A DNA stretch of 57,447 nt from a virus (IMGVR_UViG_3300031566_000035:1-57447); one strand, 5' to 3'; positions 18,239 through 41,407 are shown, numbered from the stretch's first letter. Translations and numbers: made by a program. The notes: generated by a model not told the origin, from the letters alone.

Positions 18239-18388
18239 ATGGCAACAACTATTTGGTTGATACTATCCTTGATTGAAAAAGAGCCGATACCTAACTTTTT
18301 GCAAAGCAATGGCAGTTGGGTTAGTTCGTGGATACCTGCATTATTGCTTGATTTATTCGTTATTTACATAATTTTTTATTGTTTATAA
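18239..18388 (+). CDS. 49-aa membrane peptide cassette
   Basis: MATTIWLILSLI...IYIIFYCL fills body 18217-18389 and stops at TAAC. Confidence 0.55.
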   Translation: MATTIWLILSLIEKEPIPNFLQSNGSWVSSWIPALLLDLFVIYIIFYCL

Positions 18389-18427
18389 CGAAAAAGTATA
18401 TGAACTGAAATTAAAATTTTTTGAGCG

Positions 18428-18640
18428 ATGGCAAGAACTAAAGGAAGCGGTTGGGGTGGTGGAACTATCCTATACCAAAAATGCCCTAAATGCGGCAAAA
18501 AGAAAGTAATGTATGATGGTGGTAGCGGAATAAGAGATTTAACCTCAATTCCGTTTAAATGCACCTCATGTAAGCATAGGTTTAATGACTCTGATTTGAT
18601 TAGAGAGCAATACGCAGCAAAAGCGGGTAGGCAATTTTAA
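18428..18640 (+). CDS. Zinc-ribbon protein inside an attC-like loop
   Basis: CPKCG and CTSCK pairs. Confidence 0.75.
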   Translation: MARTKGSGWGGGTILYQKCPKCGKKKVMYDGGSGIRDLTSIPFKCTSCKHRFNDSDLIREQYAAKAGRQF

Positions 18641-18820
18641 TTTTTGTTTATATACAGTGTTGTATTGAGCGCAGCGGCGTTTTAATGCAATACAACGTAT
18701 GGTAATATGAAAAGTTGGCTTTGTAGTCACTTTCAGTTTACCATCGCAGCTTGATAGCCAATTTTTTATATTACGTGTTATCGGCTGCCTTTTATTGTTA
18801 AATTATTAAATATCAAATAA

Positions 18821-19204
18821 ATGAAAAGAGAAATATTATTTAAAGGAAAATCGGTTAATACTGGCGAATGGGTTGAAAGTATGACTATTGCAAAAGGAAC
18901 TATTAAACGCAAAAAAGATGATGTGTTTATGGAGATTGGCGAAAATAAATGGATAGGTATTGAACCTAAATCATTAAGCCAATTTATAAACCAAAAGGAT
19001 AAAAACGGCAAAAAGATTTTTGAAGGCGATTATGATGCCGATGGTAATTGTGTTGTTTGGTGTGAAAACTGTAATGGTTTTGAATTTGCTGCTATAGATG
19101 TACCAACTAAAGATATTTGCATACCATGCCATAGATGCGATGGAAATTTCTTCTTTGGCGACCAAATAAACGACTTTGAGATTGTCGGAAATATTGCGGA
19201 CTAA
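18821..19204 (+). CDS. YopX family protein
   Basis: MKREILFKGK...DKNGKKIFEGD...EIVGNI. Confidence 0.85.
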   Translation: MKREILFKGKSVNTGEWVESMTIAKGTIKRKKDDVFMEIGENKWIGIEPKSLSQFINQKDKNGKKIFEGDYDADGNCVVWCENCNGFEFAAIDVPTKDICIPCHRCDGNFFFGDQINDFEIVGNIAD

Positions 19205-19299
19205 GGTTGCCGATAACGAATAGTGGTAAGCGGTCGTTTTAATGCCGTTTACCACGTGTTACCGGCTGACACGGATTATTAACCACTAAAGATTATTAA

Positions 19300-20139
19300 A
19301 TGAACGAATGTAGCAATAACAGTTTTTTGAGCGTTGGCAAAAACGGCTTTGCCGAACTTACACACGGCTCACTTTTTAGTGGCGTTGGCGGGTTTGAAGA
19401 AGGCTCTGAGCTGGCAGGAATAAAGACTATTTGGAATTGTGAACTTGAAAATTACCAAAGTAAAATATTAAAGCAAAATTACAATGAAAGCAAACAATAT
19501 AGAGATATTACAGAAGCCGAAATCAAAGAGCGAGTTAGCATCATTAGTGGAGGTTTTCCGTGCCAAGACATTAGCGTTGCGGGAAAAATGGAAGGTATCA
19601 CAGGTAAACGCTCTGGGCTTTGGAGTGAGATGTTTAGAATTATTAGGGACATTAGACCTTACTACGTCATCATTGAAAACTCGCCAGCTTTGCTTATTCG
19701 AGGATTTGAACAAGTCTTATGCGACCTTTCCAAAATCGGGTATAATGCAGAATGGCAAAGTATTTCAAACATCGCTTTTGGATACCCACACAAGAGAGAA
19801 AGATTATACGCTATTGCCTACGCCAACGAAATCGGATTACAAAGCGACATTTGCACAGGTGACGGCTTTAACTCGATATTTAGAAAGTGGACACCAAATC
19901 AGAATGATGGATATTCTTTGTCAAAAAGGATTCACGAAATCGGAGCGTGTGAAGATATTAGAAATGGTGATGGGTTTCAATCCTGGACACACAGAGTTGG
20001 AAGCATAGGAAATGCAGTAAACCCAACAGTTGCCTACTATTTATTTGAATGTATTAAGCATCATTTTTTAAAAAGGAGGGGAGAAAAAACTGTTATTGCG
20101 GACTTACAGCAGATAACTCGATTAAATGTATCGGCGTAG
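19300..20139 (+). CDS. C5 cytosine DNA methyltransferase, alpha chain
   Basis: LFSGVGG (I), GGFPCQD (IV), ENS (VI), HKRERLY (VIII), GNAV (X); motif IX not seen. Confidence 0.92.
   Translation: MNECSNNSFLSVGKNGFAELTHGSLFSGVGGFEEGSELAGIKTIWNCELENYQSKILKQNYNESKQYRDITEAEIKERVSIISGGFPCQDISVAGKMEGITGKRSGLWSEMFRIIRDIRPYYVIIENSPALLIRGFEQVLCDLSKIGYNAEWQSISNIAFGYPHKRERLYAIAYANEIGLQSDICTGDGFNSIFRKWTPNQNDGYSLSKRIHEIGACEDIRNGDGFQSWTHRVGSIGNAVNPTVAYYLFECIKHHFLKRRGEKTVIADLQQITRLNVSA
19484..20008 (+). CDS. Overlapping alternative-frame ORF, putative methyltransferase beta chain
   Basis: Nested in the +1 frame; LLPTPTKSD and terminal LEMVMGFNPGHT resembling motif IX; true start uncertain. Confidence 0.7.
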   Translation: MKANNIEILQKPKSKSELASLVEVFRAKTLALREKWKVSQVNALGFGVRCLELLGTLDLTTSSLKTRQLCLFEDLNKSYATFPKSGIMQNGKVFQTSLLDTHTREKDYTLLPTPTKSDYKATFAQVTALTRYLESGHQIRMMDILCQKGFTKSERVKILEMVMGFNPGHTELEA

Positions 20140-20239
20140 TGTTTGCTGGTAACGGTTTGGCTATGCACCGTATGAGGAACGAATATGGGGTATAGGTGTT
20201 GTTACCCACCTGTACCGATTTAATAACGAAAAACTTTAA

Positions 20240-20692
20240 TTGAAAATGAAAACTTTTGTCTTGACTGTTTCAAAGCAGTTTCCAAAAACACACGAAAAGG
20301 CTGGAAAATCAACTGGCTTTGTAGAAAATATCTCCCGACTATTTACTAATGATAGTGAGAAGATACATACTATTCGCTCAAATTATGACCTATGGCACAA
20401 ACGAGCAAAAGAAATAAACGAAGGAAAGGCTGTGTTGTCGATTAGATACTGGTTTGAAATGCCTTACCGTTCAAAGCAAGTTGAAATTTGCAGACTTGAA
20501 AGAGTTGGTGTTGAAAAACTTGAACAGCCTGACAACTTCGTATTTGCTCCAATTGAAGGGAAGCCGATTGATTGGGAATTAGTGGCAAAGAATGACGGTT
20601 TAAGTTTTGAGGACTTTTGCGAGTGGTTTAAGTCAAGACAAAAAGAACCTATGGCTGTTCTTCATTTTACCGACTTTAGGTATGGTGGGTAA
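20240..20692 (+). CDS. ASCH/PUA-like protein
   Basis: KIHTIR...W...PYRSKQ...AKNDGLSFEDF..WF; stops at TAAC. Confidence 0.65.
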   Translation: MKMKTFVLTVSKQFPKTHEKAGKSTGFVENISRLFTNDSEKIHTIRSNYDLWHKRAKEINEGKAVLSIRYWFEMPYRSKQVEICRLERVGVEKLEQPDNFVFAPIEGKPIDWELVAKNDGLSFEDFCEWFKSRQKEPMAVLHFTDFRYGG

Positions 20693-20874
20693 CGGTGGCA
20701 ATAAGAAACGAAAGGGATTGCGAGCCACGAACCTATCAAACCGTGAAAATTTGGCACGGATTACTGAACTTGATTAACCGATTAAACCCTTTTGTTTTTT
20801 ATTGCGTGTTATAAGCCGTATTTGTTTTATTATCAACCGAAAGTAAAATAATTTAAAAATAAATCACTTTTTAC

Positions 20875-20905
20875 TTGTATATATGATATATATTATATAT
20901 CTTTA
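20875..20905 (+). promoter_or_regulatory. Internal promoter/operator in cassette 20808-21257
   Basis: TTGTAT followed by near-palindromic ATATATGATATATTATATAT and TATCTTTA (near TAnnTTTG). Confidence 0.5.
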
Positions 20906-20938
20906 CTTCATAATTAATAACAAATAAAACATACAATT

Positions 20939-21103
20939 ATGAGTACAACAGAAGTAAGAGAACAATTAAAAGCAGAAGGAATTTCTGCAATTGTTAAATT
21001 GGTAGATAATAGATTTGAAATAAAAGTAAAAATGCAGGAAAACTTTACAAAAGTAGTAAGAATGTTTCCTTTGGCAAATGTAAGCCATACAACGATTAGA
21101 TAA
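20939..21103 (+). CDS. 54-aa hypothetical protein
   Basis: MSTTEVREQLKAEG...HTTIR; below the track cutoff. Confidence 0.65.
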   Translation: MSTTEVREQLKAEGISAIVKLVDNRFEIKVKMQENFTKVVRMFPLANVSHTTIR

Positions 21104-21244
21104 ATGAAAAAGATTATTGATATACCTGACGAAATAGTTAAAGACTTAAAGAAGTTAGCTATTGACCAAAATAAAGACCTAAAAAACTTTATTCAAGACG
21201 AACTAAAAAAACTTGTCGAGAACCCTCAATCGAAGCCGTCTTAA
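21104..21244 (+). CDS. Ribbon-helix-helix (CopG/Arc-like) regulator
   Basis: MKKIIDIPDEIVKDLKKLAIDQNKDLKNFIQDELKKLV; strand-helix-helix pattern. Confidence 0.75.
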   Translation: MKKIIDIPDEIVKDLKKLAIDQNKDLKNFIQDELKKLVENPQSKPS

Positions 21245-21399
21245 TATGGCTTATAACGTTGAGTATAAGAAACGTAGCGTTTTAAAACACTTAACTACAA
21301 TAACTTACAAAAGTGAAATTGAAATAGAAAATTTAATATTAACCACTGGTGCAGCTATGTTTTTTATACATTGTTACCACCAGTACATTAATTAACAGC

Positions 21400-21645
21400 A
21401 TGAAGAAATTTAATATAAACCACTATATGTACATTCAGATAACCGATACTGGATGGCAACACCTAAAGCAAACTGTGGGTGAAGATTACATTAAACATTG
21501 TATTGAACCTTATAAAACTGATGTAGATGGCAAAACTTGGTATAGATTACAAGCCCACAGTGTATTTGAACTACTGCCAATAAATTTCGGTGGACAAGTA
21601 GCCTACAACCCTAATGTAATGTTTGACGATAAAGACCTTACTTAG
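21400..21645 (+). CDS. Cassette hypothetical protein
   Basis: Fills body 21373-21658. Confidence 0.7.
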   Translation: MKKFNINHYMYIQITDTGWQHLKQTVGEDYIKHCIEPYKTDVDGKTWYRLQAHSVFELLPINFGGQVAYNPNVMFDDKDLT

Positions 21646-21702
21646 TATTGGTGGTAACGTTGAGTGTATGGTTTGATTTTTAACGATTTAAAAGAACGAA
21701 AT

Positions 21703-21954
21703 ATGAAAGATTTAGAACACTTACAAAGAATTATAAAAGAATTGCAAAATGATAAAGATAACGGAAAACTTGGTGATTACGCACAAGGTAGATTAGCTGC
21801 ATTTAAGATGTCAGAAAAATTAGTTAAAAATTTAACTATACATATTGTTAGCAATTCGGTTTGCTGCGATAACTGCCAACACCAAACACCAAGACATAGT
21901 ATTATGTGCAGTAGTTGCTTAGGGTTTAATCACTTTCAGCAAACTGATTGCTAA
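21703..21954 (+). CDS. Cassette protein with C-terminal zinc finger
   Basis: Crosses GTT 21847; CDNC and CSSC encoded in the body. Confidence 0.7.
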   Translation: MKDLEHLQRIIKELQNDKDNGKLGDYAQGRLAAFKMSEKLVKNLTIHIVSNSVCCDNCQHQTPRHSIMCSSCLGFNHFQQTDC

Positions 21955-22076
21955 TGTTTCGACTGTATGGCGTGAGCCTTGTACTTCACAAGGCGGAAAG
22001 CCATTCAATAGATGCTTACGCTATACAGTATGTTATGAGTAGTGACACAAGTTTTAACCTTAAAATAATTATAGAA

Positions 22077-22343
22077 ATGGAAAATGTAAAAGAATTAATT
22101 GAATTAAAAGCTATGATGATATTGGCTTGTAAACTAAATAAAGAGCAACTTATAATTGAACTTACAGACCTTGTAAATTCAATTAATTCAGCATCTATCG
22201 AAAGTCGAAACATTATGAGTAATGAGGCTCAAAAAGAGCTATTAATTGATGTGCTTAATGTTATTGAGCGTTACTATGATGTAGAATTTGGTAACATTGA
22301 TAATGCAGTAAGCTATATATTAGCTAAAATTAATAGTGATTGA
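22077..22343 (+). CDS. Cassette hypothetical protein
   Basis: Within body 22032-22371. Confidence 0.6.
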   Translation: MENVKELIELKAMMILACKLNKEQLIIELTDLVNSINSASIESRNIMSNEAQKELLIDVLNVIERYYDVEFGNIDNAVSYILAKINSD

Positions 22344-22428
22344 GCCGTCCACTTGTGGCATTACTCATAACGGTTTGGCTATGTTTTGAAAATATATTTT
22401 ACTAATTTTTAACTAAAATAAAAAGATA

Positions 22429-22857
22429 ATGAAAAGAGAAATTAAATTTAGAGTTTGGGAACAAAATAAAAAGAAAATGGTATATCCGATTGACACTTTA
22501 AAGGTGAGTAACGAGGAAGGATATTCACATTTAGAGCAATTTTTAGATCGTGGAGATTTAGTAATGGCAGACGATTATGATATTAAGCATTATAAAAAGT
22601 TACCATGTATTATGATGCAATACACTGGAATAAAAGATGTTGACGGCAAAGAAATTTACGAAGATGACATAATTAACGGTATGACCGTAACATACTGCGG
22701 AGATCAAAATGGCGGGCTTGGAATGGCTTGTGGTTGGTATTTACAGCAAGATGATTTTGAAAGATGGATAGAGTTAGAATCTAAATGTAATGCAAATGGA
22801 GATAACCATAAAATTGATGGGAATGTACATGAGAACCCTGAACTACTAAAAAGCTAA
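22429..22857 (+). CDS. YopX family protein inside an attC-like loop
   Basis: MKREIKFRVW...MQYTGIKDVDGKEIYEDD...GNVHENPELL. Confidence 0.9.
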   Translation: MKREIKFRVWEQNKKKMVYPIDTLKVSNEEGYSHLEQFLDRGDLVMADDYDIKHYKKLPCIMMQYTGIKDVDGKEIYEDDIINGMTVTYCGDQNGGLGMACGWYLQQDDFERWIELESKCNANGDNHKIDGNVHENPELLKS

Positions 22858-23098
22858 AAATATATTTATAAAATATTAGCTGTTGTTGTATTGCGCCATT
22901 AAGGCTTGTGCACATAGCATCCGTTACGCTAAGAACTGATTATTAATATGCAGATTATCAGCTTTAAACTGATACAGAGACTATGAAACATAAAAAACAT
23001 TATAGCGTAATGGAATACAATGGATGGCAATAAGAATAGTTGGCTCTCGAAATTTAGTACAGACTTTAATTTGAAATACAAATAAAAACAAAAAAGAG

Positions 23099-23422
23099 AT
23101 GGAAAAACATGATTTAAGAACACAAATTTGCATAGAAGTAGATGCAAAAAATATTGATGGTAAAACAGCGAGCAGATTACTACAAGCTATTAATAATACC
23201 GAAAATAAGCAAATAAGCAAATTACAACATTTCAAGGACACAACTGTTGGGCTATATGCTTTTGATTGTAACCCAGAAGATTTAATTATAAAATTTGTAA
23301 ATAGCCAAAGCGATGCTTGTAGTTTATTTACAGAAGATGTTGATAGACTTACTGAAGATTGGAAAACATTTTGTAATGATAAAAATATTGTAAAAAGTCC
23401 ATTTTTCAGAATTAGTGGGTAG
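23099..23422 (+). CDS. Hypothetical protein inside an attC-like loop
   Basis: 107 aa between arms at 23019 and 23494. Confidence 0.7.
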   Translation: MEKHDLRTQICIEVDAKNIDGKTASRLLQAINNTENKQISKLQHFKDTTVGLYAFDCNPEDLIIKFVNSQSDACSLFTEDVDRLTEDWKTFCNDKNIVKSPFFRISG

Positions 23423-23510
23423 GCTTTTGTTTTTATTCCACACAAACCTACTGCACTTGATTGAAAAACAAGCCAATTATTTTTATTGCGTGTTATAAAC
23501 TGTAAAAATT

Positions 23511-23702
23511 ATGAGCATATTATTAGACAAATTACTAAAAGAAGCAGACACCTCAACAACCACACAAGCAAAAGATTTGAAGTGGTATATCGCAAAACCA
23601 TTACCGTTTTATTCGTTGAAAACAAAACTTAAAAGGATAAAAGATGGATTAAGAGTTATGAACGGAAAATCTTTTGCGGTACATTATAAACAAGATGAAT
23701 AA
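23511..23702 (+). CDS. Cassette hypothetical protein
   Basis: Fills body 23492-23719. Confidence 0.7.
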   Translation: MSILLDKLLKEADTSTTTQAKDLKWYIAKPLPFYSLKTKLKRIKDGLRVMNGKSFAVHYKQDE

Positions 23703-23846
23703 TTTTTATTGTTTATAACGGCTGGCGGTATGGTTTAGTAAAGGCTGACCACTACCGACCAATCGAAGAACAAAACTTAATTCAGCCTTTATTAACTATA
23801 CCGCTTGTTAGGCTTTCGTGCTTTGCGGGCGGGAAACACAAAGATT

Positions 23847-24074
23847 ATGAGAAACTATACAACATTAGATTTAGTGAGGTTTAACAGGCTTGCAAATGAA
23901 AACAAAGACCTAAAGCCAATTGAGTTGATTAAATTATATAATGAAAAGTACCCTGAGAAAACAGCAAAAGAAAAACTGATAATTTTATCAAAGGCTTTAG
24001 GAATTAATAACCTACACAAAGCCTTAACTGGTAATGATATTCCAGAGGACGAGCGTTGGGAGCATGAAGCCTAA
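23847..24074 (+). CDS. Cassette hypothetical protein
   Basis: Stops at TAAC. Confidence 0.7.
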   Translation: MRNYTTLDLVRFNRLANENKDLKPIELIKLYNEKYPEKTAKEKLIILSKALGINNLHKALTGNDIPEDERWEHEA

Positions 24075-24134
24075 CGGCAAATTGTAAGTTGTCGGGTGCT
24101 GTTGAAATACGCACAGAATTAAATTGAAAAATAA

Positions 24135-24470
24135 ATGTTGAATAACTTAAATAGTGAACGGATGAAATTTACAGACAAACAAATTAAGGCAGCAAAGGAA
24201 GTGAAAGAAGAAGTAATACACGGTACTTTGTATGATTGGAGACATATTTACATGGCTGGTGAAATTTGCATGTGGGACGAATTACAGCAAAAGAAAGTGA
24301 ACGGTGTTGAACAAAGCGAAAGCACCTGCAATTTACAAAATGTTATAGATAGGTTTTGTGCGTTGGAAGATGCGATGAAACTTACTCTTACAAAAAACAT
24401 TGGTAAAGTTAGTTTAATAAATAGATTTGAAGAACTTGGTAAAGCGCTGGGGAGGGAAACTTCTCTATAA
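24135..24470 (+). CDS. Cassette hypothetical protein
   Basis: Crosses GTT 24342, stops at TAAC. Confidence 0.7.
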   Translation: MLNNLNSERMKFTDKQIKAAKEVKEEVIHGTLYDWRHIYMAGEICMWDELQQKKVNGVEQSESTCNLQNVIDRFCALEDAMKLTLTKNIGKVSLINRFEELGKALGRETSL

Positions 24471-24534
24471 CGTTGAGCGTATGCGCCTGTTGGCGTGTTG
24501 ATTAGAATTACATAACTTTAAAAACAGATATAAG

Positions 24535-24762
24535 ATGAAAAAAGAAAACACAGTTAAAAATACCACTAAGCCAATGGCGTATGACGCATTGTTAGGTGTT
24601 GTTGCTGCCGAGCTAACCCAAGCAGCCGAAATAATACAACACTTAAAGGCTTATGGAATGATACACCCAGTTACAGGAGTTAAATACCCAGAAGGAACGC
24701 ACCAAGATTTTATTAGAAAAGCTGATGAATGGCTATGGCGTTTCCGAGGCAATAACACCTAA
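24535..24762 (+). CDS. Cassette hypothetical protein
   Basis: Crosses GTT 24591 (AYDALL), stops at TAAC. Confidence 0.7.
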   Translation: MKKENTVKNTTKPMAYDALLGVVAAELTQAAEIIQHLKAYGMIHPVTGVKYPEGTHQDFIRKADEWLWRFRGNNT

Positions 24763-24810
24763 CGGTAAATTGTATGGGTTGATTTTGCCCGATTTAAAAT
24801 AACAAATGAT

Positions 24811-25104
24811 ATGAAAAAAGACTTAATTAAAACGCTATGTATTTTCCAATACTGGCTACACGACAATTACAAAACAATAAGCACCAGCTCTATTGATATG
24901 ACAAATAGAGCTTCTGAATTTGTACAAAGCAAAGGGCAAAATTTACCTGTACAAATTGTTAGCGATAGTACGTTAACTAAACATAGAAGCCTTGGATGGG
25001 TTCGAGAAGTAAAGCAGTATAAATGTCCTCACTGCTTAAGAAATCAAGTGCCTGAACTGGCTTCATTTTGCCCAGATTGCGGTGCTAAATTTGATTGGGA
25101 TTAG
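24811..25104 (+). CDS. Cassette protein with C-terminal zinc ribbon
   Basis: Crosses GTT 24958; CPHC...FCPDCG. Confidence 0.7.
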   Translation: MKKDLIKTLCIFQYWLHDNYKTISTSSIDMTNRASEFVQSKGQNLPVQIVSDSTLTKHRSLGWVREVKQYKCPHCLRNQVPELASFCPDCGAKFDWD

Positions 25105-25189
25105 TATTATCGCTAACGAAAAGCAATAAGAAACGTGCGAAATAACGCACAAAACTAAATACGAGTACTGATTTTAAATAAAAAAAGCG

Positions 25190-25483
25190 ATGGAAGAAAA
25201 CACAGTATTATTGAGCCTTGAAAAATATGATAGGCTAGTTGAAGCTCATAAAAAAGTAAATGAGCCAAGGAAAAAAACAGTATTAATTGAAAGCGCAATG
25301 TTTAGCCGTTATGAGTGTAAAACAGATGACGAAGCGACTGCGAAATTGGCGAATGATTTAAAAGAGGTTAAGGCTGAACTGGCAGAAGCTAAGGCGAAGT
25401 TAGACAAACTGCCAAAAGAAATAACGCTTGATGACATTAAACAAATGAGCTGGCGTGAGTTTAAGAAGTGGAAGCGTGGGTAG
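25190..25483 (+). CDS. Coiled-coil protein inside an attC-like loop
   Basis: 97 aa between arms at 25115 and 25563. Confidence 0.7.
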   Translation: MEENTVLLSLEKYDRLVEAHKKVNEPRKKTVLIESAMFSRYECKTDDEATAKLANDLKEVKAELAEAKAKLDKLPKEITLDDIKQMSWREFKKWKRG

Positions 25484-25700
25484 GCTTTTTATTTAAAATT
25501 GCCCCAATAACCCACTAAAGCTAATACGAGGCACAGACCTAAGCATGTTTTTTATTGCATGTTGTACGCTGTGCCTTGTTTAAAAGCAAACTGAACTACC
25601 AATTACGCACCAACCTAATTAAAGATTTTAGGCATTGCGTACAACGGTAGTAGGTAAGTTGCGTTGCGTGAATTTAGTAAAAACTTAAAAAATATAACAA

Positions 25701-25913
25701 ATGTTAAAATTTATAAAAAACTTATTTAAAGGTAAAAAGCAGCAATGCAATTTACCTGTTGTTAGCGGTAGTGCTTGGGATTTGCCTGATGGCGTTTACC
25801 AAGTTGGAGTTGATAAAGCAGCTAAAGGAAGTAAAGACTATAGCTGCCGTGTATGGATGAAAAAGGGAATAAGTGGAGAAATGATAATTGTAGCGGAGGA
25901 GCATTACCGCTAA
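25701..25913 (+). CDS. Cassette hypothetical protein
   Basis: Crosses GTT 25761, stops at TAAC; last unit of array 1. Confidence 0.7.
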   Translation: MLKFIKNLFKGKKQQCNLPVVSGSAWDLPDGVYQVGVDKAAKGSKDYSCRVWMKKGISGEMIIVAEEHYR

Positions 25914-25965
25914 CTATGTTATATAGTTACTTAATTGTTATTAATTTAAAAATCAAATAATTATG
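25909..25965. repeat. Array-terminal site, copy 1 (57-bp direct repeat)
   Basis: Identical to 29002-29058; core AACTATGTTATATAGTT. Confidence 0.9.
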
Positions 25966-26187
25966 ATTGAATATATTTCAAATACTGAAAAATTTATGAG
26001 TAGTTATAATTTATTATTGCAGAAAGTGAAAGAAAGGTGGGTCCGGGCCGATTGCAAAAGAACAGGGATTAATGAAACGAAAGTTAGTAGAATAAAAAAC
26101 GGGCAATTTGATATTTTAACATTAATAGAAATGGCTTCTGTGTGTAATCTTGAAATGGATTGCGATATTAAAGAAATTTGGCATTAA
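25963..26187 (+). CDS. XRE/Cro-like HTH protein
   Basis: RADCKRTGINETKVSRIKNG...TLIEMA helix-turn-helix pattern. Confidence 0.65.
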   Translation: MIEYISNTEKFMSSYNLLLQKVKERWVRADCKRTGINETKVSRIKNGQFDILTLIEMASVCNLEMDCDIKEIWH

Positions 26188-26219
26188 AGAAAAATAGAAG
26201 AAATAACAAAAATTTATAT

Positions 26220-26315
26220 ATGAAAAGGATACAAAGAAAAAGGACAAAAGGTTGGAGGATGCCAGATAATACTATTTTTGTTGGCAGACCTACAAAATGG
26301 GGAAATCCGAAATGA
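26220..26315 (+). pseudogene. Truncated DUF4326-like gene
   Basis: MKRIQRKRTKGWRMPDNTIFVGRPTKWGNP then stop; this is the typical N-terminus of that family. Confidence 0.7.
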
Positions 26316-33488: not shown

Positions 33489-33792
33489 CGGTGTTGACTT
33501 GGTGTTTACGTGTACTTGCGGCGAAAAAATAAACTTATAATATGGTTGCTAATGTTAGTATAAGTGGCGTTTTTTCTATGCCATTTATACATTGTTACCT
33601 GACTGGTACGATTTATAAGCCTAAAACTTTGATTTAAGCACACAATAAGTAACTATTTATTTTTTAGCGTTGGCAAATTAATGAGGCACGAATTAAAATA
33701 TTTACAAAATAATTAAAATAATTTGCTTTTATAGTTGATAATTACAAAATAAGTTATATATTTGTAGTGTAAGAAACAAACAAATAGAAATT

Positions 33793-34080
33793 ATGAAAAG
33801 AAATGTGTGGATACCAAAAATGACAAAAGGAAGATTAGAAAGATTATTAGCCAAATCAAAGTTAACTAATGATGAAAAAGAAGATTTGTTAGACTACAAG
33901 TATTTTTTACTTAATCAAAAAGTTTGTGCTTATGAGAAAAAATTAATGGATGCTGTAAGTGTTAATCAAGCAGAAGAGTTTTGCGATATTAGAGGTTGTA
34001 TTTTAGTTCCTAAAAATATGTTTTGGTTAACTAACATAAATCATTTAACTAACGGATTTAAAAGCGAATACTATTTATAA
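33793..34080 (+). CDS. Hypothetical protein in promoter-bearing cassette
   Basis: Preceded by a TATATTTG -7 box near 33757. Confidence 0.7.
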   Translation: MKRNVWIPKMTKGRLERLLAKSKLTNDEKEDLLDYKYFLLNQKVCAYEKKLMDAVSVNQAEEFCDIRGCILVPKNMFWLTNINHLTNGFKSEYYL

Positions 34081-34268
34081 TGGCATACATATACTACAAT
34101 AAAGAATTAAACCAATACAGATTGTTTGGAAGCCTTCCTGTAATGTGTAAGACTTGCGAATTAGATTACACGCATTTACAATACGCATTTAGAAATAATA
34201 AAACGGAATACGAAAACGACACTTTAAAGATTATTAAGGTTACGCTTGAAAGGGGTGGAAAAAAATAA
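34080..34268 (+). CDS. Small putative HTH regulator
   Basis: FGSLPVMC...LDYTHLQYAF helix pattern; translationally coupled. Confidence 0.6.
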   Translation: MAYIYYNKELNQYRLFGSLPVMCKTCELDYTHLQYAFRNNKTEYENDTLKIIKVTLERGGKK

Positions 34269-34474
34269 ATAGTTACGTGTAGATAAAAACAGGTTTTAGA
34301 ATTAAGCACGAACCTAAGTACTTGCAGGTACGAAAAAGTATATGATTTCGAGCCGATAAATGGCACGAAACTACAATAACAGAATAAAGTAAATTAATAT
34401 TATAAACTAAGAAGATAGCACCAACACGGCTTGAATTATATACGGTGTTGTGCATCTTTTAAAAATGCGGAATT

Positions 34475-34789
34475 ATGCAAGGAAAATACCTTATAAACAC
34501 AGATGAATGGTTTGTTGCACCAAATGGTAATAGCTACAAAGCAGCGTGGGGAAATGTTGAAATAATAGAAGACACTTCTTTAGGACTAAAAACTAACAGA
34601 AATAGTACAAATTGGTATGCTAGAGTGGGGAGCGAGGACAACCACATAATAATAGCAGGTTGCCAAATACACTACGCTGTTAGATGCGAGAATAAACCTA
34701 ATACAGAACCGAGCGAAGAATGGCAAGCAGATGCAGCCAATGGGCTAAAAGAATATAAAGCACCTGCCCGAATATATATAGCTGAGTAG
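34475..34789 (+). CDS. Cassette hypothetical protein
   Basis: Fills body 34447-34809. Confidence 0.75.
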   Translation: MQGKYLINTDEWFVAPNGNSYKAAWGNVEIIEDTSLGLKTNRNSTNWYARVGSEDNHIIIAGCQIHYAVRCENKPNTEPSEEWQADAANGLKEYKAPARIYIAE

Positions 34790-34956
34790 CATTTTTTATT
34801 GTGCACAACAACGCTAAGCTGAAATTCGTTTCAATGAATTTTAGCGACCGTTATCAATCGTATGACGGAGGCTGAGCTTGTCGAAGCCGAGTAATATGAT
34901 TGACAGGACAGACAAAAAGTTTTTAAATGCAGATTTTTATATAAATTTAAAAAAAA

Positions 34957-35142
34957 ATGAAAATAAACATAACTTGTTCATGTGGAAGGGTATTCGATGT
35001 TATAGGTAATGGGATCAGGTTCATTCATCATGGAAAAGAAAACAAAATAATGTTAAAAGATGAAATAATACGTTGCAAATGCGGATCGGATAACCTTAAT
35101 TTTACGAGTAATTTAAAAATAAAAAAATCGGATTACCCATAA
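34957..35142 (+). CDS. Zinc-ribbon protein
   Basis: CSCG and CKCG. Confidence 0.6.
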   Translation: MKINITCSCGRVFDVIGNGIRFIHHGKENKIMLKDEIIRCKCGSDNLNFTSNLKIKKSDYP

Positions 35143-35245
35143 GTAAAGAGCTTTATTTATTTTGATTTTGATTAAATATTTATTATATTTGTATCTTGTT
35201 TCATGTTTATATATTTAGATTAGATGTTTGGTTAGTAAATTGGTT

Positions 35246-35276
35246 AAAAAGGGCTATTTCTCGATAGCCTTTTTTT
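35246..35276 (+). terminator. Intrinsic terminator-like hairpin
   Basis: AAAAAGGGCTAT-ttctcg-ATAGCCTTTTTTT. Confidence 0.7.
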
Positions 35277-35317
35277 ATTATACAAAACCCGATCCTGATC
35301 TTATAAGAAAATAAATT

Positions 35318-35572
35318 ATGGTTATATCACACATACCGCTAAAGCTAATATTAGTTGAAGACCCAAAGGTTGGAGGTTACACATCTTTTTTTGCGCAATT
35401 CCCAGAAATTTTGGCTCAGGGTGAAACAGAAGATGAGGCAACTGAAAATTTGTTTAAAACGGTTAGTATTGTTTTTAAACACAAGGGTGGTATTGGACAT
35501 GGTGTTAAGAAGAGTGAATATAATGTTATAGAAAAAGACATAAATCTTGACACCTGTGAATGTCGGAAATAA
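35318..35572 (+). CDS. HicB-like antitoxin domain protein
   Basis: EDPKVGGYTSFFAQFPEILAQGETEDEA..NL. Confidence 0.8.
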   Translation: MVISHIPLKLILVEDPKVGGYTSFFAQFPEILAQGETEDEATENLFKTVSIVFKHKGGIGHGVKKSEYNVIEKDINLDTCECRK

Positions 35573-35768
35573 TCCTTTAATTACAAGTCATGGTTTACAC
35601 GAATGGATTTTAAATGCGTTAATATCGACTTTATTTACCTAAAACAAAATAGAACGAATATAAACAATATACATAAATACCTGAAATAAAATATAATAAA
35701 AGGAATAAAAATAAAAAATAAAATATTTAGAATATTTTTATTATCTTAGCATTATAAAATCTCCGAAC

Positions 35769-36251
35769 ATGATAAAAATATTAAAAAACGAAAAAACAGA
35801 AAATGGTAATTTTTTTATATTTTTCAATACCGAAACAAAGGAAAAGGCAAGGATAAAAACAGACAATACATCTGTATTGGCGTTATGCGAACTAATAAAC
35901 GGGGAGCGGATAAATTTAAAACAGGCAGAATGCTTTAATCTTTTGGATTATAAAAGCATCTTATTAGAGAAAAAAGAGACACGTGTACAGTCGGACGTAA
36001 TGGACATATCATATTTATTGGTGAGTATAAACGGGAAAGATTACCTTAAAATCTTCCATAAAGGACAGGATATGCTTTCTTTCAGCTCCGCACCGATCAA
36101 AAACATAAAATCCTTTATGGCTTATACGGAAAAAAAACTACAAGATGTCGAATGGGGCTTGATTGATGAGCGATCCGCTATTATAGAATCATCGGAATCC
36201 ATCCTTTCTGGAATAAGAAAAGCCAATGGTTTTTATTCAATAAAAAAATAA
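35769..36251 (+). CDS. Hypothetical protein
   Basis: 160 aa ORF. Confidence 0.65.
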   Translation: MIKILKNEKTENGNFFIFFNTETKEKARIKTDNTSVLALCELINGERINLKQAECFNLLDYKSILLEKKETRVQSDVMDISYLLVSINGKDYLKIFHKGQDMLSFSSAPIKNIKSFMAYTEKKLQDVEWGLIDERSAIIESSESILSGIRKANGFYSIKK

Positions 36252-36604
36252 TTTATTTATATCCGTATTTATTATTTATAACTGCATTTACCTTTTATTT
36301 ATAGTGCCATTTATGCTTTATTTATGGCGCCATTTATCGTTTATTTATGGTTGCATTTATATATGGCGCATTAGCCCAATATAGATATATAGACACAGCG
36401 CATATGTATTAATATATATAAGAACCTTTAATTGCTATAAATAATGTACATATGTTATAATGCTTCAACTATTTGTAATTAATATAAACAACATATATAA
36501 AATATTGATAATGAAATAATTTGAAATGAAGCTTAAAAAAACGCTTGACAAATTTCTTAATTTGCTGTAGATTAGCAGAAAATTATTAACCAAAAACTTG
36601 CAAA

Positions 36605-36910
36605 ATGAAAACGATTAAATCAAACAAATTAAATTTAAAAACCATGAAAAACTTGAAAAATGCAATTACAGACAATCTAATTAATTATTATGCGAATTCA
36701 ATTAATTTATTCGATTTTGTCGAAAATAATATTTCGCCATTCATTGAAATTTCTGAAGAATCAAAAGAAACAATACGATTGATAATATCGCAAAGCCAAA
36801 GAGGGTGGTATGCAATTGAATGCGATGAGGAAGGGCCCACAAAAGAACAGGACGAAGAAATGGACGCCTATATAGAATCGGTAACGGCCGAAATTTTAAA
36901 TTCACTATAA
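36605..36910 (+). CDS. Acidic putative early protein
   Basis: After TTGACA at 36545; acidic C-terminus. Confidence 0.65.
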   Translation: MKTIKSNKLNLKTMKNLKNAITDNLINYYANSINLFDFVENNISPFIEISEESKETIRLIISQSQRGWYAIECDEEGPTKEQDEEMDAYIESVTAEILNSL

Positions 36911-36921
36911 AAAATAAAACC

Positions 36922-37173
36922 ATGAAATTCACAAAAGATCACTACAAGTTAATCAAGGACAGGTTTATAAATCTTGGAATTGATGCAATTATAGAACACC
37001 AAGCATATTGCTTGCTCAATAATTATTCAAAAACAAGATTTGTGTGGGGGGTTTATTGGGAAGCCGAGGATGAAAATTCAAGGTTGGATACATCCAATTA
37101 TTCGGACATACACATCGAAACGGCCATAACAACGGCAATAAAAGAACTATTAAAAGATAAATACCTTTATTAA
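36922..37173 (+). CDS. Hypothetical early protein
   Basis: 83 aa with AAAACCATG leader. Confidence 0.7.
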   Translation: MKFTKDHYKLIKDRFINLGIDAIIEHQAYCLLNNYSKTRFVWGVYWEAEDENSRLDTSNYSDIHIETAITTAIKELLKDKYLY

Positions 37174-37241
37174 ATCGCTTTAACACCCCTGCCCCACGGG
37201 CAGTATTTCAAACAAAAATCAATTAAAATAAACATAACATC

Positions 37242-37466
37242 ATGAAAACATCGATAAAAGAAGTATTTGAAAGCGGAAGTTGGATGATCCAACGAATCCA
37301 TCAAGGAACAAGCAACAAGACAAGGCGCATTGATGCAAAGCGAAGATTCCCAGAAGCTGATGGAAAGAATTCATTTTCAGAATGGTGCAGCACTGCATAC
37401 GCCGATAGGTTGGCGAGAGAACATTATGGGAAAAATACCAATGATTTTATGTGTTTTTGCTATTAA
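37242..37466 (+). CDS. Hypothetical early protein
   Basis: 74 aa ORF. Confidence 0.7.
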   Translation: MKTSIKEVFESGSWMIQRIHQGTSNKTRRIDAKRRFPEADGKNSFSEWCSTAYADRLAREHYGKNTNDFMCFCY

Positions 37467-37486
37467 ATAATTTAAAAACTTGCAAA

Positions 37487-37693
37487 ATGAAAAAACTAAC
37501 AAAAAAAGAATTAGCGGAATGGTATGTTAGCGCTCATTCCGACTGCGGACACGTATTATATTTTTCAGGGGATCCCCGTTCAGCGGTAACCGAAGATTAT
37601 TTTTTTAAACACCTGATGAAAAAAAGGAGAGGGGAATTGGTCGAATTGATCTATAACCATTCAGACGAGGGTAGGGCGTTTTTAAACAAATAA
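37487..37693 (+). CDS. Hypothetical early protein
   Basis: Leader AAAAACTTGCAAAATG is shared with ORF 36605. Confidence 0.65.
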   Translation: MKKLTKKELAEWYVSAHSDCGHVLYFSGDPRSAVTEDYFFKHLMKKRRGELVELIYNHSDEGRAFLNK

Positions 37694-37761
37694 TCAAAAA
37701 AAATGAAAGAAATTTCAACAAATAATTAGGATTTTAAACAAATATTAAATAACTTAGCATT

Positions 37762-38541
37762 ATGGAAACCAAAGTATTACATAATAAATTCAAATATATA
37801 TTGGAAGGATTGGCCCCTGCCGGAAAGGAAGAGGAAGGGCATCTGTACATTGAAGTTGACGGGCTTACATATGACGTTACAGCGAAGCCCGACATATACC
37901 ATGTAATGGCGTACGATAGGCCAAGGAATACAATAACGGTGGATACATGGCTGCCCGTGTTCCCCGGGTTTTACGGGACTATTTTCGATCACGGCGAAGC
38001 CATCGACATTGAACGCGAAAACATTGAACAGGACAGAAAGGATAAAGGGTTATCACCACCGCTCACACAAAAAGAAATCGAAAGCATTGACTTCGATATA
38101 AATTCAAGGATGAATGACATTGCAGCGAAATGTTGTGGAATAATGGAAATGGAACTATCAGGCTTCGTACACTCAATAGAATTCCAGGGAGTCCATAGCC
38201 CACGCTCCTACAACTTCACGAACGATCAGATCAATTGCCGTATCACGTTCGACATGCAGGCGGCCAGGAAATACATAACGGATGACATTGAAGCATTCAA
38301 GGCCCACCTAAAGGAACGGTACACATCAAGGGATGGGTTTATCCCATTGCAATCAAGCGACGCAAAAGATTGGCAATTCTACGATGTGCTAAGGGACGAA
38401 CACAAAGCGGGCGAAGTACTCCAGTTTATCTGCAACCAACAGGGCATAACAGATGAAGACCTGCAAGAGGCCTCAATGATGTACATCAGCGCCAATAACT
38501 ACGATTACGAGAAGCACGAGATAATCATTAACAACAAGTGA
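37762..38541 (+). CDS. Acidic conserved phage hypothetical protein
   Basis: FPGFY, SPRSYNFTND, YTSRDGF motifs; visibly higher GC than flanks. Confidence 0.75.
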   Translation: METKVLHNKFKYILEGLAPAGKEEEGHLYIEVDGLTYDVTAKPDIYHVMAYDRPRNTITVDTWLPVFPGFYGTIFDHGEAIDIERENIEQDRKDKGLSPPLTQKEIESIDFDINSRMNDIAAKCCGIMEMELSGFVHSIEFQGVHSPRSYNFTNDQINCRITFDMQAARKYITDDIEAFKAHLKERYTSRDGFIPLQSSDAKDWQFYDVLRDEHKAGEVLQFICNQQGITDEDLQEASMMYISANNYDYEKHEIIINNK

Positions 38542-38561
38542 ATATGTAAGCTAAACAATTT

Positions 38562-38596
38562 AAAACCCCTCTCAATAACAACAGAGGGGTTTTTTT
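38562..38596 (+). terminator. Intrinsic terminator
   Basis: AAAACCCCTCT...AGAGGGGTTTTTTT. Confidence 0.8.
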
Positions 38597-38971
38597 ATGC
38601 AATAACACACCAAACCAATACAAAAGAAGCATACTTACAGTAAAGCCCTGTCTATACTATCCGGATCAAAACAAACCAAACTATCCAAAGGCTAAAACAA
38701 ACCCAAAGAAGATCAAAGCAAACCCCATAACTTGTGGAATAAAGGGTTAATGGGCAATTGTCTTTTTTAAATCCTTTTCATGTGCGCAAGAATAACGCCC
38801 TGTAATGAACGATAACACACTTATAGTATCCATACATAGGATAATATTAAAGACCTGTTAGGTGCGCTTATATGAAGCTATATGGGTAGATTATCAGGGG
38901 GGCTGTTGAATGGTTAAAGGCAGACTTATTACTATCATTATAACTTATTGATTAATAGTGCATTAACACCT

Positions 38972-38999
38972 ACTTAACATAATGGTAATTATAGGACAA
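38972..38999 (-). other. dif-like XerCD recombination site
   Basis: Minus strand TTGTCCTATAA-TTACCA-TTATGTTAAGT, 11-6-11 layout with near-canonical XerD arm, in a long non-coding region. Confidence 0.8.
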
Positions 39000-39484
39000 A
39001 TAAATAAATATAATATACTGACACAGTGATGGTTATAAATACGTCATAAATCTTTAACATCTTTTTTGCGTTTTCGTTTTGCCCGATAGGGCCTTTTCCC
39101 TCCTATAATTACCAAACACAAAACCTAAAATAACTTTTTGGATTCGTTATAAATTACGGATATAGTTGTATATGTTACAAAAATGTAGTATTATTGCCGA
39201 TAGAACACAACAAAGATGTAGTATTGATAATTTTAAGGGGTCATTCCGCCTTGATGATGACATTAATTTTTATTGTTGGTAATGGAAAAGAATATGAATA
39301 ATAAGGGAGTAAGGCACGGGTAAGAGTCCCGTAGAAATAGGTGAAGTGTCGATAGGGCAATCAGCCAACTGCAATCCTACCCTTATTATTTATTGTTGTA
39401 TGTCTTTTTAAATTGTAGATAACGCACCGTGCGCGGAGTGAAACGGGATACAATGCGGACTGTTGATTAAAATTACAAAAGGCG

Positions 39485-39799
39485 ATGGACAAGGAAAGTA
39501 GATACGAATTACAAAAAATTGACTGCAACTGTAACGATTGCTTTTTTATGGTTAGGGATTTTGATACTTATAAAAAATGGGGATCATTTCACATGGATTT
39601 GCAATTAAAAGAATTTGAACATAAAAAAGAGAACGGAGAAATAAGACCTAATGCGCAATTTCAATTTGATAAAAGCACTTTACTTCAATATGGGAAATGC
39701 TCAAAATTAGGCAAAGGCATTTCGTTTATACCTAACGTATGTCAAATTGAGACTCAAGAGTGCTTCAAACATAGGCGAGTGCGTTTTAATGCATTTTAA
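39485..39799 (+). CDS. Cys-rich hypothetical protein
   Basis: DCNCNDC...C...C...CF. Confidence 0.7.
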   Translation: MDKESRYELQKIDCNCNDCFFMVRDFDTYKKWGSFHMDLQLKEFEHKKENGEIRPNAQFQFDKSTLLQYGKCSKLGKGISFIPNVCQIETQECFKHRRVRFNAF

Positions 39800-39829
39800 A
39801 CATTGTTGTAAATCTTTTAAATACGGAAT

Positions 39830-40066
39830 ATGGAACACGAACTTAAAATACTCCCACAATACTTCGAGGAAGTGTGGAGCGAAAACAAAACCTTTGAACT
39901 AAGAGAGGATGACAGAGATTATAAAATAGGTGATACTTTGAGACTACTTGAATTTGACTACGGAACTTATACAGGTAGAGAATGCAACCGAACAATATTA
40001 TACATACTTAGAGATGCTGACCAATACGGACTGAAAGAAGGTTTTGTGATACTAGCAATGAAGTAG
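39830..40066 (+). CDS. ASCH/DUF3850 family protein
   Basis: HELKILPQYF...KTFELR.DDRDYKIGD.L.L.E. Confidence 0.85.
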   Translation: MEHELKILPQYFEEVWSENKTFELREDDRDYKIGDTLRLLEFDYGTYTGRECNRTILYILRDADQYGLKEGFVILAMK

Positions 40067-40203
40067 TATTTTATTGTTTACAACGTTGAATGCAAGGTGT
40101 CGTGGCTGCCTGATAAAAGCTACATAGTTATAAATTTAAACAAATATTGATATGAAAAACGAAACTTTAAAACCCCAACAGCCATGCACTATATAACATA
40201 GTT

Positions 40204-40485
40204 ATGGGTAGTACTTATAGAATGCCAGAAAGTTTCTCTGAATATGAAGGCGAAGAGATTATGTCAAACTTTGACGGGCGTGTAGTAGAAGAAAGTGCAA
40301 AAGCAATTAAAGGTAAGGAATTATTTAGTAGGTATGCTGGTTGGAACTTTAACGGAAAAGTTTGGTGGCAGAATGATAAATGGTTATGTGAAGTGTGGTG
40401 TTATAGAAGCTGGAGAGAAACTTTCGTTTGTGAAACGCCAAAAGAATTAATGGAAGAGATAAGCTCTGAATATGGGTACGAATAG
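40204..40485 (+). CDS. Cassette hypothetical protein
   Basis: Fills body 40201-40498. Confidence 0.7.
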   Translation: MGSTYRMPESFSEYEGEEIMSNFDGRVVEESAKAIKGKELFSRYAGWNFNGKVWWQNDKWLCEVWCYRSWRETFVCETPKELMEEISSEYGYE

Positions 40486-40576
40486 TATTACCCATAACGG
40501 ACAGCGGTATGATTCGTTTGCTCCTCGAATCACCACGAAATTAGGAGCGTAGTATTAACTTAACAATTTACGAGCG

Positions 40577-40924
40577 ATGGATTTTGGATATGCTATACAG
40601 ATTTTAAGAGAAAAATTAGTTGATGATAGTTATGAACTTACATTAGCTGTTGAACAAAAAGATGAAGAAGTGCAGGAACGGCAAAAAGAACGCTTAGCTA
40701 TATTGCAGGATGCGATGAATGCGTTGGCTAAACCTTCGAGCATACCACAAGCAAATGAATTATTACCGCATGTTAGCGGTAGTAATAATTTTAAGAAGAT
40801 ACTTAAAAAAGCTAACAGTGAAATATGGCACCTAACTAATGATGAAATAAGAAGTTGGGAAAAAGATGGAAGTATAGAACGTGGTGATATTTTGTACAAA
40901 GTTGTAACAGATACACTGTACTAA
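40577..40924 (+). CDS. Cassette hypothetical protein
   Basis: Crosses GTT 40772 (LLPHVSGS). Confidence 0.7.
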   Translation: MDFGYAIQILREKLVDDSYELTLAVEQKDEEVQERQKERLAILQDAMNALAKPSSIPQANELLPHVSGSNNFKKILKKANSEIWHLTNDEIRSWEKDGSIERGDILYKVVTDTLY

Positions 40925-41006
40925 TTATTACCGCTAACGGTTTGTGTATGAAAAGTACGGGATTAACCCTAAAAATTATAAACGAGTACAAATAAAATTT
41001 ACGATT

Positions 41007-41228
41007 ATGAAAACAACAAATGAATTAAGAGACGAATTAGCAATGAAAATGCCAAAAGAAGCATTGCCAACGCTTAACGCACAAGAAACTATGGAGAAAG
41101 TTGCAAAAGAATTTGATATTGATGTTGACTTTAATGATGAGATAAGCCTTATTGAATTTAGCCTAAAATACCAAGCTGCAATAAGGTATAAGTATGCTGA
41201 TGCAATGATTGAAGCAAGAGCTAAGTAA
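41007..41228 (+). CDS. Hypothetical protein inside an attC-like loop
   Basis: LRDELAM...YKYADAMIEAR motif. Confidence 0.75.
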   Translation: MKTTNELRDELAMKMPKEALPTLNAQETMEKVAKEFDIDVDFNDEISLIEFSLKYQAAIRYKYADAMIEARAK

Positions 41229-41407
41229 ATTTTATTGCTTCAATTACGCAGCAAAGTAGATACGAGAGATACAGTAGTATTTTTTATACACTTTGTTACC
41301 GTGTCGTTGCTTCTCCTTAAAAGATGTGACGCTCAAAGATTGCTACTAATTAATTTTAGAGCAATGCACGGTAACTATGTTATATAGTTCACTTTTATTG
41401 CAATAAA

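Follow-up and report, generated by a model that had tools for sequence, protein, structure and literature searches.

Inverted integron-type recombination sites overlap or enclose coding sequence in a cassette array of a phage contig

Integron cassettes carry a recombination site, attC, which is about 57-141 bp long and non-coding. The viral contig IMGVR_UViG_3300031566_000035:1-57447 (57,447 bases, the whole of which is called the window here) raises the question whether such a site can also hold a gene. An initial annotation of this DNA had proposed that, in a region of small genes, arms of attC-type sites enclose complete open reading frames (ORFs), the cargo sitting in the loop of the site rather than in the cassette body. 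We found this observation to be largely real: the core reading, genes between arms, was right, but the orientation was wrong and the scope too narrow. With a confidence little better than even, we read the locus as an integrase-less integron-type cassette array in the accessory-gene region of a phage, with inverted sites and a host probably belonging to the Bacteroidota. What we see, in this contig and in others, is a general overlap of inverted attC-type sites with coding sequence in phages. The array itself and its most conserved element are the following.

16784..41375, + strand: array of at least 25 integron-type cassettes without integrase, resembling a cluster of attC sites lacking integron integrases (CALIN); chain of alternating TAAC and GTTA boxes
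18127..18142, + strand, also at 20150 and 22368: conserved 16-mer (TAAC box, 5-nt spacer, L arm), directly after a stop codon each time

Direct reading of the sequence distinguished two alternating box types, namely seven nucleotides followed by TAAC, a spacer of 5-6 nt and an arm, and an arm followed by a spacer of 2-4 nt, GTTA and again seven nucleotides. The arm 3' of a TAAC box pairs with the arm 5' of the next GTTA box, and the 7 nt after GTTA are complementary to the 7 nt before the next TAAC at 6/7 positions or more in 22 consecutive pairs. Such flank complementarity is the trace of a circular cassette. A chain search returned a single unbroken chain from 16784 to 25912, plus further pieces. 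A strict test, demanding both flank complementarities at 6/7 or better and an arm energy of -9 or below, returned 15 hits for the window, and 0 when the window was reversed. Over 26 curated sites the mean arm energy was -10.0 kcal/mol for cognate and -4.3 (sd 2.5) for non-cognate partners, and the cognate GTT box ranked first in 14 of the 26. Long sites were further assessed by the duplex energy of 53-nt arms against about 900 GTT-anchored arms from the whole window. The assignment of the sites to the integron type, made by the initial annotation, is borne out by this cognate arm pairing and by the complementarity of both flanks. Core boxes of 25 curated sites read [TC]AAC in 23 cases and TAAT in two, and GTT, mostly GTTA, in all. 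Both the inverse core boxes RYYYAAC...GTTRRRY and the partner-specific inner inverted repeats (L''/L') of attC are present. Mismatches, rather than bulges, are mostly seen in the L stems. This box anatomy is that of an integron cassette array. Small attC arrays in phages were already known (PMC9892861). Outside the array, one site-like triple of 76 nt lies at 9463-9538, with an arm energy of -9.6 and 6/7 or better in both flanks; it may be due to chance, about one false triple per 57 kb being expected from the control.

Length and coding content set these sites apart from the usual attC. Twelve of the 25 curated sites measure 194-519 nt, 15-16 of the 25 overlap or enclose an ORF, and the range of lengths, 46 to 519 nt, has no gap. 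Six sites hold a whole gene:

18387..18661, + strand: 275-nt site, loop ORF 18428-18640 (70 aa, zinc-ribbon-like), body 32 nt
23009..23494, + strand: 486-nt site, loop ORF 23099-23422 (107 aa), TAAT variant box and long spacer
25115..25563, + strand: 449-nt site, loop ORF 25190-25483 (97 aa), body 79 nt, empty
17084..17356, + strand: 273-nt site, loop ORF 17135-17335 (66 aa), TAAC-side spacer unusually long, body 72 nt
22369..22925, + strand: 519- or 557-nt site, YopX gene 22429-22857 (142 aa) in the loop, GTT box at 22885 or 22923
40936..41297, + strand: 362-nt site, loop ORF 41007-41228 (73 aa), body 75 nt

All six loops enclose a complete ORF, as had been claimed, and the 142-aa protein is indeed a full-length YopX domain (Pfam E 8e-18); the zinc ribbon of ORF 18428-18640 was recognized by sub-threshold profile matches only. 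The arms, described beforehand as well matched in all but the 17084 site, were of unequal quality. Those of 18387-18661 (-16.0 kcal/mol, 0 of 898 controls as good), 23009-23494 (-16.1 kcal/mol, 2 of 901; the start had been placed at 23019) and 25115-25563 (-14.7 kcal/mol, 11 of 899) are real and form 22, 19 and 12 terminal pairs, respectively, in the minimum free energy structure of the full-length site. Site 17084-17356 is fair (-13.7 kcal/mol, 22 of 897, 21 terminal pairs at full length), with flank complementarity of 7/7 on both sides. The remaining two pair at family-consensus level only: 22369 reached -12.5 with the GTT box at 22885 and -11.9 with that at 22923 (13 and 20 of 899 controls as good), and 40936-41297, anchored by flank complementarities of 7/7 and 6/7, had weak arms (-12.1 kcal/mol, 52 of 900). 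Single-strand folding, the check that had been suggested, gave 0 terminal pairs at full length for 22369-22887 and for 40936-41297. Once the ORF was replaced by a tetraloop, an inner second stem appeared flush against it at 23009 (13-bp), 25115 and 40936 (11-bp). Nor do hidden GTT/AAC pairs split these sites into ordinary short ones: internal candidates at 5/7 flank complementarity numbered 0, 0, 1, 0, 2 and 1 across the six, all with arms at background level. The bodies behind the loop genes are empty in five of the six cases (72, 32, 121, 79 and 75 nt), in agreement with the initial annotation, and the sixth, behind the 23009 site, has 222 nt and a second ORF, 23511-23702. A candidate seventh long site, 32373-32832, failed the arm test (-6.7, 610 of 896 controls as good). 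Beside the YopX site we also observed a 61-nt repeat, 92% identical between 16199-16259 and 22884-22944 and including a GTT box; the first copy lies within the 3' end of ORF 15976-16257, the second is non-coding and follows the YopX gene.

Whole-gene loops had been presented as a separate class of sites. This did not hold, as 9-10 further cassettes have an ORF that starts inside the site and leaves it through the GTT box. Partly coding sites and very short ones are the following:

40496..40774, + strand: 279-nt site with the start and first 66 codons of ORF 40577-40924; arms -18.5, 3 of 900 controls as good
24073..24344, + strand: 272-nt site with the first 70 codons of ORF 24135-24470
16784-16901, 17429-17623, 21656-21849, 24469-24593, 24761-24960, 25643-25763 and 28591-28883, + strand: further partly coding sites
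19215..19260, + strand: short site, 46 nt, upstream of the C5-cytosine methyltransferase-like gene 19300-20139
20151-20203, + strand: another short site, hairpin z-score -1.3

The GTT half-site precedes the ORF in 10 of the 25 curated cassettes and follows it in 6; in another 9-10 it falls within the ORF, between codons 19 and 82, and the box is read in frame. With the half-site in all three positions and no gap in site length, the loop genes are the far end of a continuum. At its other end, the short sites named in the initial annotation all fold as hairpins, with z-scores of -3.4 (19215-19260), -1.3 (20151-20203), -3.5 (33551-33596) and -1.9 (34807-34852).

The nearest indirect evidence on the recombination of long sites comes from the 40496 site, which encloses the N-terminal part of its ORF only and is not one of the six whole-gene loops. 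It is about 90% identical to a stretch of another phage contig (L259) exactly from TAAC box to GTT box, with unlike flanks. Over the 66 codons the two differ by 13 synonymous and 7 non-synonymous changes; the resulting ratio of non-synonymous to synonymous polymorphism (pN/pS) of 0.13 indicates that the loop is translated and under purifying selection as coding sequence. In the protein database, the N-terminal part of ORF 40577-40924, up to the GTT-box residues, recurs at 88-91% identity with four different C-terminal partners, and the C-terminal part at 58-70% identity with five different short N-terminal partners, so that the protein modules of this family break at the GTT box. Similarly, the 25643 site including its 24-residue leader is 91% identical in contig L048, where the body is different. 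Of 15 sites of 100-150 nt that the 16-mer anchors in other viral contigs, 14 have an ATG about 19 codons before the GTT box, and the reading frame runs on to the next TAAC box into proteins that are mutually unrelated. One widespread form, a site of about 120 nt with an ATG in the loop and a second arm encoding ...KALHIADV, precedes unrelated proteins in contigs L008, L018, L044, L052, L062, L073, L080, L096, L110, L111 and L113.

How these sites are oriented could be read from bacterial chromosomes. In the window, the TAAC-side half directly follows the preceding stop codon, the TAA of the box itself being the stop in 10 of 29 cases, and the next ORF begins about 40-90 nt past the TAAC box in 15 cassettes. 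For the 16-mer, at least 118 stretches were counted in viral sequence and at least 120 in genomes, mostly those of Bacteroidota. Its raw count in genomes is not above chance, since about 280 copies would be expected by arithmetic in 596 billion bases of even composition; its evidential weight comes from clustering and strand bias. In the bacterial genome G001 the reverse complement of the 16-mer occurs 49 times, all on one strand (0 in the control), and 43 of the 49 copies form part of an array of 69 kb, one end of which lies about 0.5 kb from a gene for a tyrosine recombinase. The coding strand of that array reads ORF, stop, TAAC-AAC-GGCTAT...CATAGCC-AAACC-GTTA, next ORF, in other words ORF, TAAC...CATAGCCAAACCGTTA, next ORF; this layout identifies the 16-mer as the reverse complement of the distal (L'-R') end of the site. 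Of 40 G001 sites, 30 had a recognisable first box, and those 30 measure 126-151 nt. In an alignment of 28 G001 sites the loops were too uniform for a general attC model, and 7 sites carried an additional C on their first arm. A second, small cluster of six sites with the 16-mer lies distant from the large array (G001:C1:1311127-1314115). A recombinase of this type is also encoded in two further genomes, G003 and G005, where it lies 3.4 and 6.3 kb upstream of the motif and shares its strand. The G001 recombinase matches IntI4 (PDB 2a3v, E 1.9e-31), its best PDB match being a XerC-like protein; by these comparisons it is an Xer/IntI-like enzyme that fails the curated cut-offs for integron integrases. 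With the exact 16-mer common to the 43 sites of the G001 array, the phage sites are shown, at the level of sequence, to be of the same family as attC of Bacteroidota chromosomal arrays beside Xer/IntI-like recombinases.

It follows from this homology to L'-R' that the phage sites are inverted relative to their genes, that the TAAC side corresponds to the canonical R' and the GTTA half to the canonical R''-L'', and that the + strand is the canonical bottom strand. The R'' and R' labels of the initial annotation have to be exchanged, because the TAAC side carries the conserved L'-R' half of the chromosomal attC. The inversion is not particular to this contig: among the matches listed, genes are encoded on the TAACGG strand at 120 of 129 viral occurrences (opposite 3, unclear 6) and at 16 of 125 in genomes (opposite 95, unclear 14). 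In the literature covered, to which the supplementary site lists of PMC9892861 did not belong, neither an orientation bias of phage attC nor whole genes inside attC loops were reported.

So nearly fixed an orientation towards transcription, 120 to 3, might also mean that the inverted repeats act mainly in RNA, a long-range stem that begins at the upstream stop codon sequestering the next start for translational coupling or processing, with the attC likeness inherited and unused. This explanation would suit the near-constant spacing between the box and the start codon within the loop, and likewise the inner stems, in which A-rich sequence ahead of the ATG pairs with T-rich sequence beyond the stop; short ORFs in attC sites have been proposed as a translation aid (PMC8876359). 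It leaves unexplained, however, the complementarity across bodies (GTTA and the 7 nt after it against the 7 nt before TAAC and the box itself), the letter-for-letter 16-mer common to chromosomal arrays and the homology ends at the boxes, and no Rfam family matched the window at gathering thresholds. We consider it the least probable of the explanations discussed here.

Where the mobile unit begins and ends was examined on ORFs and on contigs from other samples. ORFs of at least 40 codons cross TAAC boxes in 1 of 29 cases and GTT boxes in 11 of 25. Contigs of four other metagenomes (X2-X5) were compared over 15.5-35.4 kb, and the 32 pieces listed, a selected subset of 1722, have 64 ends; TAAC boxes account for 13 of these where 2.1 would be expected (P 3e-7), GTT boxes for 3 where 1.1 would be. 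A whole TAAC-to-TAAC stretch, 19214-20165, which comprises the methyltransferase-like gene and the site upstream of it, is spanned jointly by two X3 contigs at about 98% identity. These comparisons support a cassette unit that would run from TAAC to TAAC, with some exchange at GTT boxes being possible. By analogy, we infer that crossover would take place between TAA and C. The opposite possibility, classical orientation on the + strand with TAAC as R'' and GTT as R', crossover between G and TT, cassettes made up of a body and the site behind it, and loop genes that travel with the preceding body, appears improbable to us. In its favor, homology breaks sharply at the GTT box in the ORF 40577-40924 family, in L259, in L048 and in record 17 of run X4, and GTT is in codon phase 0 in 7 of 9 read-through ORFs. 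The patterns of L048, L259 and the protein family fit upstream as well as downstream linkage of bodies, though, because the site family is conserved. Cutting between G and TT would sever 9-11 ORFs, and the piece ends, the methyltransferase-like gene that travels with its upstream site and the 16-mer homology, which puts L'-R' on the TAAC side, all speak for the inverted orientation.

Comparison with other loci suggested that the loop is a position for cargo. Contig L072 shares the scaffold of the 25115 site, the left 100 nt being 87% identical and the right flank, inner stem included, similar, and its loop ORF has no similarity to ORF 25190-25483, for which a pattern scan of viral contigs returned no relative. 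A homologue of the zinc-ribbon gene is a body gene behind a short site with its own complementary flanks in three (L251, L252, L253) of the seven loci compared, an eighth, cut off, being left out (L257); the other four (L250, L254, L255, L256) had no such sites. In L252 a tyrosine recombinase 34% identical to that of G001 directly follows the zinc-ribbon cassette (L252:1501-2533), and this contig may represent a phage-borne integron-like platform. The one viral-contig relative of ORF 23099-23422 (L258) is without attC-like flanks. Contigs of the other samples further contain joints that skip loops, from 23046 to 23468 (X4, X5), 25185 to 25476 (X2), 17464 to 17580 (X2), 21685 to 21820 or 21821 (X2-X5) and 24157 to 24290 (X2, X4). 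Their matching sides measure 20-57 nt, with possible letters between the joined parts not resolved, and we take them as a mere hint.

The joints at 23046, 25185, 21685 and 17464 bear on another explanation, in which the long sites are dead relics, short attC whose loops gained ORFs by illegitimate or homologous recombination, with only the short sites active. Short direct repeats (TTGATACGAG-like) border the loop inserts, and the phage encodes an exonuclease, NinB/Orf and NinG/Rap. The TAAT boxes at 23009 and 21953 and the aberrant spacers, 15-16 nt at 17084 and 23009, look like decay, and two loop sites are without full-length folding. Nevertheless, the arms of 18387, 23009 and 25115 retain partner-specific pairing far above the family consensus, a second phage has the 279-nt site with about 90% identity over exactly the stretch between the boxes, and these four joints have matching sides of only 20-37 nt, with possible letters between the joined parts as noted above. 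We hold the relic explanation to be unlikely, while taking it more seriously than the classical orientation or a role in RNA.

The TAAT boxes, the aberrant spacers and the two loop sites, 22369 and 40936, not predicted to fold at full length also count against an integrase-less array of inverted sites, and so do several other points. No recombinase was found in the 57-kb record, which is 64% complete by its own estimate: PF00589, the tyrosine recombinase family, had no match there. The crossover between TAA and C is taken over from analogy alone. Three piece ends and the module break of the ORF 40577-40924 family lie at a GTT box, which may be recombining as well. The G001 recombinase scored 178.5 against a cut-off of 265 for TIGR02249, in a split match (positions 2-181 and 239-314, skipping 182-238), and 192.7 against 220 for NF040815. 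It did not show the extra segment that is specific to IntI either. Finally, an automatic search of other viral loci found 18 sites of at least 250 nt against 14 in the reversed-sequence control, and 10 against 4 at -11 kcal/mol or below; the search thus did not exceed its control, and a general occurrence of the longest class does not follow from it.

If the array is nonetheless what we propose, an integrase-less array of inverted sites, the mobile unit would extend from one TAA/C crossover point to the next, the folded + strand, equivalent to the canonical bottom strand, would serve as the recombinase substrate, and the recombinase would come from the host or from the missing third of the phage genome. 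Long loops would probably lower folding efficiency without abolishing recognition. For the repeat site of Vibrio (VCR), deletion of the 65-bp loop is described to have changed recombination little under single-strand delivery (PMC2727003); on this analogy, recombination of sites with longer loops seems plausible. A more far-reaching proposal is that in phages of Bacteroidota attC serves as a cargo bay as well as a tag behind the gene, the sense strand being recombinogenic and the loop holding a translation start, an exchangeable N-terminal module or a gene; Xer/IntI-like recombinases of host or phage would shuffle such coding hairpins between phages and chromosomal arrays. This we put forward tentatively, as doubtful on balance.

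Repeated hairpins between small accessory ORFs are familiar from the hyperplastic regions of T4-type phages, where promoter early stem-loops (PeSLs) are proposed to shuffle modules. PeSLs have, to our knowledge, no AAC/GTT core boxes, no cargo-spanning complementarity and no link to integron arrays. Closer are the phage CALINs: a survey of 10,705 phage genomes reported 17 of them, all with two or more predicted sites and one with three (Qi et al. 2023, PMC9892861). They resemble the present array in placing attC-type sites among phage genes, in lacking a neighbouring integrase and in carrying methyltransferases as cargo; a phage of Bacteroidota (Polaribacter phage P12002L) provides one example, and five of six tested phage attC sites recombined with IntI1 (PMC9892861). 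They differ from the array described here, with at least 25 sites that are uniformly inverted, half overlapping coding sequence and up to 279-557 nt long; coding attC sites and orientation bias are not described in the parts of PMC9892861 on which this comparison draws.

With sedentary chromosomal integrons (Vibrio VCRs, and G001 in this work) the phage array has in common the family of boxes and arms, the 16-mer, one ORF per unit and conserved sites with differing cargo. In the G001 array, however, sites are 126-151 nt long, non-coding and placed after the gene on the coding strand, whereas those of the phage span 46 to 557 nt and are found on the gene's other side. In Treponema-type integrons, too, the recombinase gene and the cassettes are described as co-directional, as in G001, G003 and G005, with attC of 63-132 bp (PMC3607928); this likeness concerns the bacterial platforms and not the phage array. 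An attC structure and a reading frame on the same DNA have been obtained synthetically (Nivina et al. 2020, PMC7439510). Those coding attC were designed, with a variable terminal structure of 3-21 nt, the natural class 1 range being given as 3-100 nt (PMC7439510); here the overlap is natural, and loops of about 150-450 nt encode 19-82 N-terminal codons or a whole gene. ORF-11 and ORF-17 of attI1 and the short ORFs of attC also place a translation start inside the site in the service of the following cargo, but, as presented in PMC8876359, they make peptides of 11-18 residues and act by translational coupling, whereas here the start is the cargo protein's own.

The contig around the array is that of a phage. 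Among its products are the large (42169-43467, - strand) and small terminases and the portal, capsid and tape measure proteins; an exonuclease, NinB/Orf, NinG/Rap, an HNH endonuclease and a primase/helicase-like protein are encoded as well. G+C content of the window is about 33%, and from about 16.8 to 41.4 kb dozens of small ORFs lie on the + strand. The combination of intI and attI adjoining the array, which makes an integron complete, was not found in the record, tblastn of the G001 recombinase against the window gave no match, and ARAGORN found no tRNA in the window; for this reason a stretch at 14.46-14.53 kb considered as the 3' half of a tRNA was rejected. Close relatives were not found when helicase and large terminase were compared with viral contigs and cultured phages: the helicase is at most 36% identical to viral contigs, the large terminase at most 31% to cultured phages and 50% in one 7-kb viral contig. 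A lambda-like recombination set, consisting of the exonuclease (12848-13669), the NinB/Orf mediator (15155-15601), the NinG/Rap junction endonuclease (26962-27366) and the HNH endonuclease (16258-16785), could act on hairpins or conserved arms.

Three stretches interrupt the array: 35.1-39.2 kb and two blocks of ordinary phage genes, one at about 25.96-28.57 kb, the other at about 29.06-32.37 kb. Two 57-nt stretches, 25909-25965 and 29002-29058, are 100% identical, with further occurrences at 41373-41395, 20885-20941 and 40188-40215. Each 57-nt stretch starts at a TAAC box, with a 17-nt mini-palindrome (AAC-TATGTTATATA-GTT), and ends at the ATG that opens an ordinary phage gene block; these stretches could be a terminal array site plus promoter or leader. 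At 36272-36360, in an AT-rich gap without ORFs, 3 or 4 tandem copies of a 23-nt unit look like replication-origin iterons. A GATAAA run at 29440-29485, inside ORF 29056-29778 where it encodes a Lys-Asp repeat, had very high contig depth in all four other metagenomes, probably through low-complexity matching.

In conclusion, integron-type arrays in phages are known; what is new are sites of the attC family that overlap or enclose coding sequence and are inverted. Whereas attC is taken to be a short non-coding tag after the gene, natural sites of the same family here encode protein and reach four times the usual maximum length. They provide a natural test of the loop length that a folded single-stranded recombination site tolerates. 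The inversion of 120 to 3 in viral contigs suggests that the way phages carry cassettes is tied by some rule to strand choice, replication or translation. A conserved scaffold with unrelated loop genes bears on how cassettes arise: if unrelated ORFs are truly borne on the tip of one hairpin scaffold, as the window and L072 suggest, a step of cassette genesis would be shown. The 16-mer common to chromosomal arrays suggests a route of gene exchange between phages and the integron-like arrays of Bacteroidota.

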